Positions 2,272-43,076 are shown, numbered from the stretch's first letter. The stretch: DNA of 64,000 nucleotides from a virus (IMGVR_UViG_3300028533_000217:1-64000); one strand, 5' to 3'. Made by a program: numbers and translations. Notes: generated from the sequence alone by a model not told the origin.

Positions 2272-3201
2272 TTAATATGAAAATCCTTTAGGTATAGAAA
2301 CGAATGAAGTTTTATCAGTAGTATTATTTAATCCTAATTGTCCTTTACTATTTAAACCACAGGAATATATACTACCATCATTCTTTAATATAAATGTATG
2401 ACTACCACCACAAGCTATTTGATTTACATCGTTATTTATATTGGTAGTTACTTTAGTAAATGTAGTTCTAGTATCAGTATCATTTAATCCTAATTCTCCA
2501 TATTCATTATAACCACAAGACCATACACTACCATCGTTCTTTATTATAAATGTAAAACCAAAACCACAAGATATTTGTTTAACATCATTATTTATATTAG
2601 TAGTTACTTGTGTAAATATAGTTCTATTAGTAGTATTACCTAATCCTAATTCTCCATTAGTATTTAAACCACAAGCCCATAAACTACCATCATTTTTTAA
2701 TATAAATACATGGTCAGAACCACAAGATATTTGTTTAATATCTCCTATCTCTATCTGACTATCATCTAATAGTTGTATTAAATCATCTACTGACATTTCA
2801 CTAGTAGCTTCATTATAACCATCTTCTAACATCATATTGTATAATACTTCTTTAGCATCTGTTTCATTATCACTACTAGATCTTAATGCTAGTATAGCTT
2901 CACTCATAGCTTTAAATGTAGAGTTAGAGTTAATTAACTCATTGCCAATAGCCGATGCTATGAGTTGTTTACCGTTATTGGCACTTTGAAAAAGTTCATT
3001 TATAGCTCCTACTAATGATTTATCATTAGTTAATAGACTATCATCTGTTAAAGCTTCTTGTAGATCTTCTTTAGTAGTATAGTTACTTAGGTCTACATCT
3101 ACATTTCCTATAGCTTCTTGAAGATCATCTTGAAATACTATATCTTCTATTAGATTTTCATTTAATTCTTGTTTTGTTATTTTACCACGCATGTTTATCA
3201 C
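2272..3201 (-). CDS. Tail fibre/receptor-binding-like protein with RCC1 repeats
   Basis: N-terminal LVGAINELFQSANNGK motif; three ~52-aa RCC1 repeats (ISCG.H.FILKNDGS.W.CG.N..G.LGL). Confidence 0.8.
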   Translation of the reverse strand: MINMRGKITKQELNENLIEDIVFQDDLQEAIGNVDVDLSNYTTKEDLQEALTDDSLLTNDKSLVGAINELFQSANNGKQLIASAIGNELINSNSTFKAMSEAILALRSSSDNETDAKEVLYNMMLEDGYNEATSEMSVDDLIQLLDDSQIEIGDIKQISCGSDHVFILKNDGSLWACGLNTNGELGLGNTTNRTIFTQVTTNINNDVKQISCGFGFTFIIKNDGSVWSCGYNEYGELGLNDTDTRTTFTKVTTNINNDVNQIACGGSHTFILKNDGSIYSCGLNSKGQLGLNNTTDKTSFVSIPKGFSY

Positions 3202-9011: not shown

Positions 9012-9348
9012 CTCCTTATTAAAAGATTCTTTTCTCTATTAAAGAATTGTTTTAATAGAGAAAAAATATTGATAACCCTAATAAAGGATTATCAATATTT
9101 ATGTATTAAGGTAATATATTGAGTCAAATAACAACAAATTGTTCATTGAAAATGAACGTAGCTCCCCAACCGTATTCTAAATAATAACAACTTATTACTC
9201 TCCACTCACCCTTTTAGAGGGTTCGTTTTGTAATTAATGCTTTGCATTAATAAGTTGTTGTGTTGTTGAAATTTTATAATTTTTTGTCTAAAATGCTAGC
9301 ATATGAAACAATAATTATTATAAAGGAACATAGAAAAAATATACTAGC

Positions 9349-10509: not shown

Positions 10510-10682
10510 GATACAATGTTAGCTATAGAGCCTGCCCTCTATCAGCATATAGTATAGAGCCTGCCCTCTATCACTATACATCATATTGTATCAAATATAT
10601 GTAATGTTAGCTATAGAGCCTGCCCTCTATCAGCATATAGTATAGAGCCTGCCCTCTATCACTATACATCATATTACATATA
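10510..10682 (-). ncRNA. Two-unit structured RNA repeat (88-bp period) carrying four 21-bp hairpin repeats
   Basis: TATAGAGCCTGCCCTCTATCA x4 (10524, 10553, 10612, 10641); closing stems differ but both pair (GATACAAT/ATTGTATC; TATATGTAAT/ATTACATATA). Confidence 0.7.
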
Positions 10683-18107: not shown

Positions 18108-18572
18108 ATGAGCCAATTTAATAACAATAATAACATGAATCAAGGTAATGGAAATAAAGTAGCAGAAGAATTAAGACAAGCAAAATTAGAAAGACAACAA
18201 TTAGACAGAAGAGACAAAATGATTAGATTTAAATGTGACCATAAAGATGGTCATGGTAGACCAGCAGTACAACAAGGTCAAGAAGATGGAACTTTAGTAT
18301 GTAGAATATGTGGAACTAAAATCAATGCTAAAATGTTAAATAAAGTTGAAGTTGATAGAAAGTTAAGAGAAGTTATAAATATAATAGAAGCAATAAAAAT
18401 AGCTTCTAATCCAGAGTTAACTCCTAGCTTAGCTAAGATAGAAGAAGGTGTTGATTCATTATTAGCTCTTTATGAAAGAATAATTCTTAAACAAGGAAAT
18501 GCTAATAAAGGAAACAATAATAACAATAATAACAATCAACGTAAAGCAAATTATGGAGCTACAAAGCTTTAA
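18108..18572 (+). CDS. Zinc-ribbon-like protein with Asn-rich termini
   Basis: CDH..CRICG; GGGAGG RBS; double promoter. Confidence 0.7.
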   Translation: MSQFNNNNNMNQGNGNKVAEELRQAKLERQQLDRRDKMIRFKCDHKDGHGRPAVQQGQEDGTLVCRICGTKINAKMLNKVEVDRKLREVINIIEAIKIASNPELTPSLAKIEEGVDSLLALYERIILKQGNANKGNNNNNNNNQRKANYGATKL

Positions 18573-18577
18573 GATAT

Positions 18578-18612
18578 ATAAGAGGATAGATAAAATCTAT
18601 CCTCTTATTTTA
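18578..18612 (+). terminator. Intrinsic terminator
   Basis: ATAAGAGGATAGAT-aaa-ATCTATCCTCTTAT followed by a T tract. Confidence 0.8.
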
Positions 18613-18655
18613 TTTGTCTTTTATGATAAATTTAAGTTAATGATTTGAAATTATA

Positions 18656-18911
18656 ATGTGAAGTGTACTGTACAGATGTGTAAGCATCCAAATAGTTCGA
18701 AACGAGGGGTTCAACGTAAACGTTGATTATATGATAATTGTGAATTATCAGCCGCAAGGAATAGGCTATTTGTCAAGCATTTATGTGAAGTGTACTGTAC
18801 AGATGTGTAAGCATCCAAATAGTTCGAAACGAGGGGTTCAACGTAAACGTTGATTATATGATAATTGTGAATTATCAGCCGCAAGGAATAGGCTATTTGT
18901 CAAGCATTTAT
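18656..18911 (+). ncRNA. Tandem pair of identical 127-nt structured RNA units (family A/B, locus A)
   Basis: Exact direct repeat 18656..18782 / 18783..18909; GC-richer than flanks; multiple hairpins; homologous to 42005..42282; enclosed by inverted repeats 18621..18645 / 18919..18943. Confidence 0.8.
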
Positions 18912-18962
18912 ACGTTCCAATCATTGATTTAAATTTATTATAAAAAATAAAGGAGTGATTTT

Positions 18963-19616
18963 ATGTATTTAGAAATATGTTCAAATGTTCATGAGGAGTA
19001 TGTAGGTAAAGGAGATTCAATGGTTCATGTTAATGTTAGATTTTGGGTTGATGTTAACAATGTATATTGGTATAGTTATGTAGATATATGTAAATTGGTG
19101 TCATTAAACGAAAACGTCGCAAATAGATGGTATAGATATGAAATGATGGATAATGAAAAATGTACATGTATGGATTCAAATAATTATGATCAATACAACG
19201 TTCAACAACCAAAACCTGTAGATTTTATAACGAGCGAAACTGCAAAATTAGTAGTCCAAAGACATGCCGATTATATATCAGAAAGAGATAATAACATAAT
19301 AAAATCTTTAAATAATCTAGAATGTGTAGGAAATGCTTTTGAAGTATTCCAAGACGCTGAAGAAATAAAACAGCATAAACAAAAGATATATGAAAGTATA
19401 GAAAATAATGATTATGAATCATTCTTCTTCCATTGTCATAAAGTTTCACAAACTAAAACATGTAGAGATACATTATCTAAGAGAGGTGTAATTGATAAAG
19501 ATATGGAGGAAGCTCTTGATACGATACGCGAATATTTATACAACGAACCAGAAACTAAATGTGTGTATGGTAAAAATGATTTTAATGACATAATATGGGA
19601 GTATGATGAGTTTTAA
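18963..19616 (+). CDS. Bro-N domain protein, paralog of 42340..43020
   Basis: VRFWVD.NNVYWYSYVDICKLV..DNEK..FITSE matches the Bro-N pattern VR..D.EPWF..D.C..DDDK..FINE. Confidence 0.7.
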   Translation: MYLEICSNVHEEYVGKGDSMVHVNVRFWVDVNNVYWYSYVDICKLVSLNENVANRWYRYEMMDNEKCTCMDSNNYDQYNVQQPKPVDFITSETAKLVVQRHADYISERDNNIIKSLNNLECVGNAFEVFQDAEEIKQHKQKIYESIENNDYESFFFHCHKVSQTKTCRDTLSKRGVIDKDMEEALDTIREYLYNEPETKCVYGKNDFNDIIWEYDEF

Positions 19617-19666: not shown

Positions 19667-20440
19667 ATGCCAAATTGGAATTATAATAATATGAATGTTA
19701 AAGGAAAACCTGAATTAGTTAAAAGATTTATAAAAGAAAATTTTTCAACTCAAAAAGTTTATGATAATAAAGAAGCATATGTATTAGATTTTGAAGTAAT
19801 GGATCCAACACCTATAGATCCTGAAACAGGGGATATTATAAAAGATTGGTATGACTGGAGATTGAAGCATTGGGGATGTAAATGGAGTCCTATAACAGAA
19901 GATCAAGCTGTATCTCTATGTTTAATTTACAACGATGAAAAGTCTGAGAATATTAACTATGAAAAATTTAATGAAGAATTTGTTGATAAATTAAACGTTA
20001 ATAATATGAAAGAAATAGAATTATATATGACATTTTTCACACCTTGGGCACCTCCTGAAGGAATGTTTGAATTATGGTCAACAAACTATAAAGAAGAAGG
20101 ATTGGAAATGCTAGTAGAATTCTATGAACCTGGATGTGGATTTGCAGGTGAAATGAAATTTGTTAAAGGTGAAGATGATAGATATTTTATGATTGATTGG
20201 TGTAAAGAAAATAAAAATGAATATTTAAAATTTGTATTAGAACATGAATTAGAACCATTAGATTATTATATAGACGAATGCCATTATTGGATAGAAGAAA
20301 TGCACAAAGATGATGGTAAGGAAATGATTGAAAAAATATGTTTAGCTGTGGAAAAACAGATAGCAGAAGCTAAGTTAGAAGATGTGGTAAAATTGATTTT
20401 AGACATAAAGGATAAATATGATAAATTCTGTGAGGAATAG
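19667..20440 (+). CDS. Api92/DUF1281-like ferredoxin-fold phage protein
   Basis: MPNW.N, WYDWR.KHWGCKW, FFTPWAPP, YEPGCGFAG. Confidence 0.75.
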   Translation: MPNWNYNNMNVKGKPELVKRFIKENFSTQKVYDNKEAYVLDFEVMDPTPIDPETGDIIKDWYDWRLKHWGCKWSPITEDQAVSLCLIYNDEKSENINYEKFNEEFVDKLNVNNMKEIELYMTFFTPWAPPEGMFELWSTNYKEEGLEMLVEFYEPGCGFAGEMKFVKGEDDRYFMIDWCKENKNEYLKFVLEHELEPLDYYIDECHYWIEEMHKDDGKEMIEKICLAVEKQIAEAKLEDVVKLILDIKDKYDKFCEE

Positions 20441-41719: not shown

Positions 41720-41941
41720 ATGGGTAAGAGTAAAGATATAATGAAAATAAAAGGAACTGTAATAAAATGTCTGCCTGGAGCTAAATTTATAGTTCAGGCA
41801 GATGAAGTTGATGTAACAGCAACATGTGTATTATCAGGTAAACTAAGACAAAATAAAATAATGTTAGTTGAAAATGATAAAGTAGAATTTGAAATATCAA
41901 TTTACGATTTAACAACCGGAAGAATAGTTTGGAGATACTAA
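41720..41941 (+). CDS. infA: Translation initiation factor IF-1 homolog
   Basis: KDIMKIKGTVIKCLPGAKF.V..LSGKLRQNKI..DKV.FEIS.YDLTTGRIVWRY. Confidence 0.9.
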   Translation: MGKSKDIMKIKGTVIKCLPGAKFIVQADEVDVTATCVLSGKLRQNKIMLVENDKVEFEISIYDLTTGRIVWRY

Positions 41942-42004
41942 TTTGATAAGAGGAAAAATTCCTCTTATCAAATTTTATATTTTACATAACATAATTATAA
42001 ATAT

Positions 42005-42282
42005 ACTGTGAAGTCGATATGAATATGTAAGTCAAAAGCTTACATACAATGGCGCGAAACAAGTGGTGCTGATGTAAACATCAGATGGATGGCAGGTGTG
42101 ACCTGACAGCCATGCGGAATAGGTCATTGTCAAACAGTATTTACACTGTGAAGTTCATATCATATGTAAGTCAAAAGCTTACATACAATGGCGCGAAACA
42201 AGTGGTGCTGATGTAAACATCAGATGGATGGCAGGTGTGACCTGACAGCCATGCGGAATAGGTCATTGTCAAACAGTATTTA
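42005..42282 (+). ncRNA. Tandem pair of near-identical ~139-nt structured RNA units (family A/B, locus B)
   Basis: Units at 42005 and 42145 differ only just after GAAGT; AACA-N6-TA at 41988; homologous and covarying with 18656..18911. Confidence 0.8.
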
Positions 42283-42297
42283 ATTTACTTTTACATA

Positions 42298-42322
42298 GAG
42301 ATAACCTTTAATAGGTTATCTC
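42298..42322 (+). terminator. Hairpin between the RNA repeats and the Bro-N gene (possible attenuator)
   Basis: GAGATAACCT-ttaat-AGGTTATCTC; weak U tract. Confidence 0.5.
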
Positions 42323-42339
42323 AAATTATTTTAAAAGGA

Positions 42340-43020
42340 GTGATTTATATGTATATAACAATAGAATCTGAAGTTCATAAAGATTGGGGTTATGGATTAG
42401 AATTTAGATATTACGTTGACATGGATAATACATGGTGGTATTGTTATGAAGATATATGTGATTATATAGAATTAAATCAACAAGTTGCTGATAAAATATA
42501 TAGACACAAATTACAAGAAGATGATAAAAGAACCGTATATGACAGAAACCATAACAATAATCGTGGGGAACAAGAAACGATAGTTCTATATTTTATATCT
42601 TCCAATGCTGTAAGATATATGGTGAAACGTAATAATGAACGTAACAGTAGATTAATAAAGGTTATGAACAATTTGGAATTCGTTAGTGGAGCTCATGAAA
42701 TATTTAACGATAACGAAGAGTTAAAAGAAAGAATAAATGTTTTAGGTAAATCTATAGAAAAATATGATTATGAAGAAATATTCTATCAGGCAAAACAATT
42801 AGTTGAATCTGAATCGGGTAAAAATATATTAGACAAGATGGGAGTTATAGATAAAGATAAAGAATCTTTAATAGAACAGATAAAACATGAGATATACGAT
42901 TATGATGAAAATATAGAAGAAGTACAATTAACCATGAGAAACCTAAATGAAGAAAAGAAAGTTAAATTTAAAAAATCAGAAACAGAAATTCCTAAGTGGT
43001 TAAGTGAAGTTGTGAAATAA
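42340..43020 (+). CDS. Bro-N domain protein, paralog of 18963..19616
   Basis: FRYYVDMDNTWWYCYEDICDYIEL..RHKLQEDDK..GEQE..YFISS; shared C-terminal NNLE.V..A.E.F.D.EE.K..YE..F..GVIDKD.E; likely ATG 42349. Confidence 0.75.
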   Translation: MIYMYITIESEVHKDWGYGLEFRYYVDMDNTWWYCYEDICDYIELNQQVADKIYRHKLQEDDKRTVYDRNHNNNRGEQETIVLYFISSNAVRYMVKRNNERNSRLIKVMNNLEFVSGAHEIFNDNEELKERINVLGKSIEKYDYEEIFYQAKQLVESESGKNILDKMGVIDKDKESLIEQIKHEIYDYDENIEEVQLTMRNLNEEKKVKFKKSETEIPKWLSEVVK

Positions 43021-43076
43021 TTCTAAACGGTGTTATATAACACCGTTTATTTTTTCTAAAGGAGGTAAAACATGAG

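Follow-up and report, generated by a model that had tools for sequence, protein, structure and literature searches.

We analysed a 64,000-nt stretch of viral DNA (IMGVR_UViG_3300028533_000217:1-64000, hereafter the window) in which two loci, A and B, carry tandem repeats upstream of related open reading frames (ORFs) for Bro-N-like proteins. Judging from sequence comparison, the product of each locus is very probably a single structured RNA, read from the plus strand, with two domains and belonging to a new family. The RNA is predicted to be about 280-330 nt long and to consist of two homologous ~130-nt domains in a pseudo-two-fold arrangement. The source is an uncultured gut jumbo phage, whose IMG/VR virus record comprises 98,306 nt (estimated 47% complete, 27.6% G+C). 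Adjacent RNA/protein pairs in the whole genome record amount to exactly four RNA units and two protein paralogues.

Tandem Repeats Finder placed the locus A tandem at 18656-18911 (period 127, 2.0 copies, 100% matches) and the locus B tandem at 42005-42282 (period 139, 2.0 copies, 97%). An earlier, sequence-only reading of the window had reported two exact 127-nt copies at 18656 and 18783, as well as a second tandem about 23 kb away at 42005, and both are borne out. The units and their downstream ORFs are as follows:

18656..18782, plus strand: unit A1, an exact 127-nt repeat
18783..18909, plus strand: unit A2, identical to unit A1
18963..19616, plus strand: ORF A, 217 aa, with an N-terminal Bro-N/KilA-N/APSES-like domain (residues ~3-124) and a C-terminal helical domain
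42005..42143, plus strand: unit B1, 139 nt
42144..42282, plus strand: unit B2, 139 nt
42349..43020, plus strand: ORF B, 223 aa, a paralogue of ORF A

The units of the two loci are homologous, and all four align. They share TGTGAAGT, CGAAAC, a GTAAAC loop, a GTG(A) loop, AGCC-N4-GGAATAGG and TTGTCAA, and every joining motif that had been listed as kept in order between the loci falls into place in this alignment. The pattern CGAAAC..AGCCNNNNGGAATAGG occurs four times in the window, compared to 0.00 expected.

Homologues of the two proteins were collected from other DNA. An exhaustive HMMER search returned 35 relatives and a word-index search added more; DNA was obtained for 18 contigs (L numbers below) from ENA, Logan and JGI metagenomes, and the extra units used for covariation were drawn from about 10 related metagenomic phage contigs. 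Unit A1 is predicted to run through P1, GUGAAGU, a self-complementary segment, the P2 hairpin with a GNRA-type GUAA loop, P3, and an inner three-way junction that carries P4 (UAAA loop) and P5 (GUG loop). Six helices (P1, P2, P3, a short inner helix, P4 and P5) were defined on a MAFFT alignment of seven canonical units, alignment A5. Double-sided changes occur at 18 of its 39 pairs, which is the more conservative figure, and standard pairs fill 95.3% of cells; shifting the 3' partners by 1-3 columns lowers this share to 28-45%. The observed covariation was matched by none of 500 shuffles. An alignment of nine units gave double changes at 24 of 38 pairs with 96.6% of cells paired, although it was fitted to the covariance model and therefore leans towards it. 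With the window units alone, RNAalifold found 10 pairs with double changes, and the helices previously listed as covarying between the loci do pair.

A covariance model (R1) built from the seven-unit MAFFT alignment also scored divergent units, with 55 bits for unit 1 of L019, 57-61 for L071 and L073, 31 for L025 and 29 for L026. Covariance-model matches lie on the plus strand only and always in the orientation of the gene. Since G.U pairs are frequent inside the unit helices on the plus strand, the RNA is assigned to that strand, which is also the strand of the ORF. The single-stranded elements (G)AAGU, GCGARA, GGU...GCC and AUAGG/UAAGG followed by UCAAA are conserved, with some variation from subtype to subtype: CGAAAC changes to UGGAAAGU, GCGUAAGU or GCGAGAGC, and GGAAUAGG to GAGUAAGG or GCAUAGGG. 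The two units of L019 are strongly unlike each other, and its unit 1 lacks P5.

A search of the whole window against Rfam 15 gave no family at gathering thresholds; when the limit was relaxed to E<=10 for the two loci, there were only low-scoring chance matches, mostly to the flanking terminator hairpins. This agrees with the sequence-only reading, which recognised no RNA family. A self-processing RNA, one of the options it had raised, fares less well: no ribozyme family matched, and the self-cleaving and circular-RNA readings found no support.

The same reading had described a pair of non-coding RNAs (ncRNAs). The present analysis points instead to one two-domain RNA, held together by a helix between the units and, at locus A, by a 27-bp outer stem. 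The segments that form the inter-unit helix are:

18665..18674, plus strand: inter-unit segment of A1, GUACUGUACA, containing the palindrome UGUACA; its partner in A2 is 18792-18801
42015-42022, plus strand: inter-unit segment of B1, CGAUAUGA
42155-42161, plus strand: inter-unit segment of B2, UCAUAUC, forming 7 bp with the B1 segment

Wherever both units are identical, the segment after (G)AAGU is self-complementary. Its palindromes, UGUACA in locus A of the window, GUAUAUAC in L019, L028 and L071-75, and AUACGUAU in L025, are too short for fold-back. Units B1 and B2 differ solely in this segment, and their two versions are complementary to each other, with 7 bp of B1-B2 pairing compared to 4 bp of self-pairing; this was equalled by 7 of 5000 shuffles. 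Because the difference between B1 and B2 is a compensatory change, an intramolecular helix between units 1 and 2 is favoured over dimerisation in trans.

The outer stem of locus A, P0, lies between the gene upstream and the start of ORF A:

18578..18608, plus strand: terminator hairpin of the upstream gene (18108-18572), its U-tract adjoining the 5' strand of P0
18619..18645, plus strand: 5' strand of P0, half of a continuous 27-bp helix around both locus A units
18919..18945, plus strand: 3' strand of P0, ending 4 nt before the Shine-Dalgarno (SD) sequence AAGGAGTG (18950-18957)

P0 appears in the minimum free energy (MFE) fold of the 351-nt locus A region (z-score -5.5) and was also found by a duplex search. 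It is present in locus A and all syntenic homologues. The outer helix is continuous over 27-31 bp in locus A of the window, L020, L019, L026, L072 and both modules of L073, and in L028 it consists of 20+9 bp with one bulge. Its energy ranges from -32 to -42 kcal/mol, and G.U pairs are the only non-Watson-Crick pairs in the continuous run. The P0 sequences differ between loci, as locus A of the window and module II of L073 illustrate, with pairing kept. Locus B has no such outer helix, the best candidate in a duplex search reaching -5.4 kcal/mol. Two motifs flanking the RNA, TTTAAG... and ...TTTAAAC, were considered as promoter elements and rejected; they are the two P0 strands, and no other promoter position in the genome shows them.

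P0 is predicted to form a duplex of the kind that RNase III takes as a substrate (~20 bp or more within one transcript), as a continuous run at seven loci or modules and with one bulge in L028, and we infer by analogy that it is a candidate RNase III site. RNase III processing stems are known from the stems flanking rRNA and from sites in phage T7 early mRNA. Like these, P0 would be a long and almost perfect duplex between the two flanks of a structured RNA in a longer transcript. Unlike the T7 sites, it is continuous over 27-31 bp without an internal loop (one bulge in L028).

Locus B is laid out differently, with candidate start and end signals in place of an outer stem:

41940..41974, plus strand: terminator of a phage IF-1-like gene (41720-41941)
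41987..41999, plus strand: TAACA-N6-TA promoter-like motif, directly before unit B1
42298..42322, plus strand: 10-bp hairpin resembling a terminator, with AAAUUAUUUU after it and a weak U-tract, located between the RNA and ORF B
43024-43049: terminator 3' of ORF B

The TAACA-N6-TA motif is intergenic at 27 of its 58 occurrences in the genome record, compared to 8.6 expected, and it usually stands 15-45 nt upstream of an SD sequence and ATG on the strand of the gene. It also precedes P0 in L020, L019, L026 and L073. No copy was found between RNA and ORF. Locus A has no terminator between the RNA and its ORF; the 3' strand of P0 is found there instead.

Every one of the 18 contigs that extends far enough upstream of the protein gene shows the RNA, or the 3' end of the RNA where the contig breaks. 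Synteny with locus A holds for most A-type contigs that cover enough of this upstream region: a PIF1-like helicase comes first, then two small ORFs, an ORF of ~155 aa, the RNA and finally the protein. Whole units were recovered in L019, L020/21/22, L026, L028/29, L071/72 and L073/74/75. Six further contigs (L023, L024, L025, L027, L030 and L031) break inside the RNA with its 3' end present, as expected at an exact repeat. Two units were present wherever assemblers had resolved the repeat, and single collapsed units for the same proteins come from k141 assemblies (L072 compared to L071, L074 compared to L073). The single units of L028-L030, L072 and L074 are probably assembly collapses of exact repeats, given that both units are resolved in L071 and L073, which encode the same proteins; for L028 this is less certain.

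Searches of other collections added no further loci. No phage in INPHARED resembled either locus by blastn, and a protein-based locus search of IMG/VR (alignment A2, P0053, P0009) returned nothing. Sequencing runs, all available as Logan contigs, matched only small shares (0.06-0.17) of the words sampled from the query. The single RNA run among them, from a bovine gut metatranscriptome, had no contig on the RNA or the ORF, which speaks neither for nor against their transcription. Relatives do occur in Logan contigs of animal gut metagenomes, and one of these contigs joins 41937 to 43046 with 18 unrelated letters between, so that the RNA pair and ORF B are missing together. The cassette of RNA plus ORF B, which lies between two terminators, is thus an indel among relatives.

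A different arrangement occurs in L073 and L075, where two P0-clamped tandem RNA modules stand in a row before a single ORF:

L073:2340-2640 (also in L074 and L075): extra module, directly upstream of the canonical one, with a different ~95-nt unit

In the extra module of L073, a hairpin, UAUAGUC..GACUAUA, replaces the palindromic inter-unit segment, and the MFE z-score is -10.8. The flank of this module looks like a remnant of the ribosome-binding region of an ORF, which suggests that its ORF was lost secondarily.

The downstream protein had been called the product of a Bro-N gene. The predicted fold agrees with this name, and the sequence match is weak: ORF B reaches 20.9 bits against PF02498 (Bro-N), below the gathering cut-off of 25.6, and ORF A has no match. 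Weak PF02498 matches occur in 17 of 32 family members (best E 2.6e-5). Apart from weak Bro-N, the ORF proteins have no Pfam match at E<=1, and none in PHROGs or PADLOC. That both loci carry paralogues, as also claimed before, is clear from ORF A and ORF B themselves, which are 35% identical (E 1e-39). An AlphaFold model with a predicted local distance difference test (pLDDT) value of 90 has an N-terminal alpha/beta domain and a C-terminal helical domain. In BFVD, Bro, Bro-N or antirepressor proteins make up most of its top fold matches, with E<=1e-3 for 18. The best matches to solved structures are CpGV Orf22-N (Z 8.0, root-mean-square deviation 2.9 A over 96 aligned residues) and the APSES DNA-binding domain of Mbp1 (Z 7.0); Foldseek against PDB gave nothing at E<=1e-3. 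In the model, the N-terminal ~120 residues thus have a Bro-N/KilA-N/APSES-type fold, the middling Z scores placing the protein at the level of the fold only.

Structure prediction also supports a symmetric homodimer. Two copies were predicted to meet via residues ~114-193 with an interaction prediction score from aligned errors (ipSAE) of 0.65, compared to 0.01 for the best control, and a partner pLDDT of at least 82; prediction runs agreed in at least 77% of contacts. Among proteins with solved structures, 20 of 30 that form pairs of one chain attained this ipSAE mark, as did 1 of 23 single chains, counts that apply only roughly here because our own alignment was used for the dimer prediction.

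Taken together, we tentatively favour a reading in which one ~300-nt pseudo-symmetric RNA is released from the ORF mRNA and partners or regulates the dimeric protein. Both locus designs would separate an abundant, stable RNA from a scarcer ORF mRNA. Host RNase III would cut P0 at locus A, and partial termination at the hairpin would do the equivalent job at locus B, an analogy that draws on the established specificity of RNase III and on the precedent of toxin-antitoxin (TA) systems of type III. Less certainly, the Bro-N-fold protein encoded downstream, a predicted homodimer, would be the cognate partner, leaving one Bro-N domain for each RNA domain. Acting as an autoregulator or a neutralising agent, the RNA may then sequester the protein or regulate it, and the accessory cassette would diversify as RNA-protein pairs. 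The case for a protein partner rests on strict adjacency at both paralogous loci, on the loss of RNA and ORF together in one relative and on a two-fold symmetry common to RNA and protein.

Several observations weigh against this reading. The earlier claim that the RNA is linked to a Bro-N gene stands at both loci and in all related contigs with upstream DNA, but the protein was the route to every extra locus, which biases the linkage by ascertainment, and the extra RNA module of L073 and L075 has no ORF of its own. Both points weaken the partner reading. RNA-only pattern scans of IMG/VR (two patterns) and of JGI metagenomes (one pattern) revealed no further copies; the 12, 2 and 33 stretches they returned were all chance, none having the other motifs or a model score. 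No recognisable TAACA promoter precedes locus A of the window, L028 or L071. In the window, P0 of locus A abuts the terminator of the upstream gene, and P0 follows a terminator in L028 and L071 as well. Read-through or another promoter would therefore be needed at these loci. In addition, Bro-N domains are known as DNA binders, and a small-molecule pocket would be just as good an explanation for the conserved nucleotides at the junctions.

That last point leads to a cis-acting tandem riboswitch or leader, which we consider unlikely. Two cooperating aptamers would bind a small ligand and act through the hairpin of locus B, or through processing or translation beside P0 in locus A. In line with this, the RNA is always 5' of the same gene on the same strand without a promoter motif between them, the joining strands are conserved as the helices vary, the two domains contact each other, and locus B reads as aptamer, hairpin with a U-rich tail, and ORF. 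However, no riboswitch family matched even at E<=10, and the junction motifs vary across the family, which is unusual for a ligand pocket. By eye, there is no convincing alternative pairing of the aptamer 3' end with the hairpin; P0 neither sequesters the SD sequence nor depends on the units, and the RNA is ended in different ways at the two loci. The closest riboswitch for comparison is the tandem glycine riboswitch, which has two homologous aptamers, inter-aptamer contacts and a leader-linker helix. The RNA described here likewise has two homologous domains in one 5' region upstream of a gene, with mutual contact and an extra tying helix. It differs in matching neither RF00504 nor any other Rfam family, in making its inter-domain contact through a 6-8 bp Watson-Crick helix, in its outer stem of ~30 bp, and in core motifs that vary between subtypes.

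Also unlikely, in our view, is a free-standing ncRNA that functions independently of the protein next to it. It might be a decoy for host takeover or anti-defence, or an 'ornate' RNA of the ROOL or GOLLD kind, and adjacency would then reflect a shared accessory cassette. The ORF-less P0-clamped module of L073 and L075 fits this, as do the promoter and end signals that locus B has of its own and the other promoter-driven non-coding repeat loci that the phage appears to carry. Large phage RNAs that pair with themselves and oligomerise are known, and the ornate RNAs ROOL, GOLLD and OLE resemble the present RNA in being large, highly structured and found in phage or in the gut or rumen, with symmetry arising from RNA-RNA contacts (PMC12286853). 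Here there is no Rfam match, the symmetry arises within one molecule by tandem duplication, the RNA is smaller (~300 nt), and it is tightly linked to one protein family. Arguing for a tie to the protein, RNA and ORF are adjacent in both paralogous loci and all relatives examined, they were lost together in one relative, and the flank of module I of L073, the extra module, keeps the apparent remnant of a ribosome-binding region. Both the ornate RNAs and the tandem glycine riboswitch are neighbours in concept, without homology.

A type III-like TA or exclusion module is improbable. The tandem RNA would neutralise a toxic Bro-N-like protein, their ratio being set by the hairpin in locus B or by P0 cleavage in locus A. 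In type III TA families, repeat units of 31-62 nt, each forming one antitoxic pseudoknot, are present in 1.9-5.6 copies upstream of the toxin gene (PMC3401426). The cassette is similar to ToxIN, CptIN and TenpIN in having tandem RNA repeats (2.0 copies at both loci) upstream of a protein gene and in an RNA presumably in excess over the protein mRNA; it is accessory, and its RNA-protein pairs have diverged as cognate sets. As for a terminator between repeats and gene, locus B has the terminator-like hairpin at 42298-42322 with its weak U-tract, and locus A has the 3' strand of P0 there. However, the units are 127-139 nt long, and they form multi-helix domains (P1-P5) paired with one another and enclosed by P0, unlike an array cut into pseudoknot monomers. 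The protein has no ToxN, CptN, TenpN, Pfam or PADLOC match and shows a Bro-N fold rather than a ToxN-type endoribonuclease fold, and locus A has a 27-bp clamp in place of the terminator.

The least probable account is a DNA-level element, either an inverton or a miniature inverted-repeat transposable element bounded by 27-31-bp inverted repeats, or a replication origin beside helicase genes: long inverted repeats do flank a ~260-300-bp segment directly upstream of the gene, a few genes downstream of a PIF1-like helicase, but five internal helices covary with conserved single-stranded joiners and G.U pairs on one strand only, the units keep the orientation of the gene in all independent assemblies among the contigs compared, the locus B units have no inverted repeat, and the indel in a relative removes RNA and ORF rather than a segment bounded by inverted repeats.

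An antisense RNA was tried as a candidate and rejected. Complements of the conserved single-stranded motifs are only scattered in the phage genome, with no evident target beside either ORF. The known cases are phage P1 c4 RNA and P22 sar RNA, short antisense RNAs with defined complementary targets that control antirepressor (ant) genes. The present RNA resembles them in its position close upstream of an antirepressor-type gene or inside that gene's operon, and likewise counts as a small RNA, but it is far larger, and no target complementary to its conserved loops was found.

Other features of the phage were noted alongside the two loci. Copies of TAACA-N6-TA such as those at 9185(+), 53534(-), 80137(-) and 87968(-) were seen, several of which lead into GC-rich hairpin-forming sequence without an ORF start, and these copies suggest that the phage may make further ncRNAs. 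An exact 88-nt tandem (1.8 copies) built of 29-nt hairpin repeats lies on the minus strand at window 10515-10675; a TAACA-N6-TA motif at ~10689 precedes it, and the arrangement resembles a promoter-driven non-coding repeat RNA before an ORF. A 156-nt-period repeat at window 2320-2742 (2.7 copies, 81% identity) is probably a repeated protein domain on the minus strand. The gene directly upstream of locus B, at 41720-41941, encodes a homologue of the translation initiation factor IF-1 (PF01176, E 3.5e-14). Genes downstream of the cassette differ between relatives, with a DUF1281_C-like protein at window 19667-20440 and a DUF1232 protein inserted in L028, and this region is a hotspot of gene turnover in the window and in the neighbours of L028 and L071. 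ARAGORN found no tRNA or tmRNA in the window.

The RNA represents a new family, and with its gene a new variant of the 'tandem RNA plus protein cassette' class; it would be categorically new if an RNA-Bro-N complex were confirmed. Its fold is new and well supported, with dozens of compensatory changes. It also illustrates an uncommon route to a symmetric RNA, an intramolecular 'dimer' of duplicated domains in which a compensatory change makes the pairing hetero-specific. For RNA release, the two loci appear to use interchangeable designs, one relying on a 30-bp clamp and the other on a promoter together with a terminator.

Of the proteins in phages and large DNA viruses that still lack an explanation, Bro-N proteins are some of the most common, and we know of no RNA partner for them; full-text searches of the literature returned no paper that links Bro-N to 'structured RNA' or 'riboswitch' by title or abstract. 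One further reading, which we regard as doubtful, is a new phage ribonucleoprotein cassette in which a tandem-duplicated RNA, zipped by the inter-domain helix and a ~30-bp clamp, docks the Bro-N homodimer with one domain per half. Cognate pairs would then diversify and be exchanged between jumbo phages as specificity modules, for example in immunity, exclusion or phage-phage competition. If the RNA does dock the homodimer, Bro-N, a very widespread domain, would have its first described RNA partner. Binding to the protein would define a new type of ribonucleoprotein and offer a handle on Bro-N function, whereas sensing of a ligand would define a new class of tandem riboswitch in jumbo phages. 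Either way, the RNA would be an addition to Rfam and a good target for cryo-electron microscopy.

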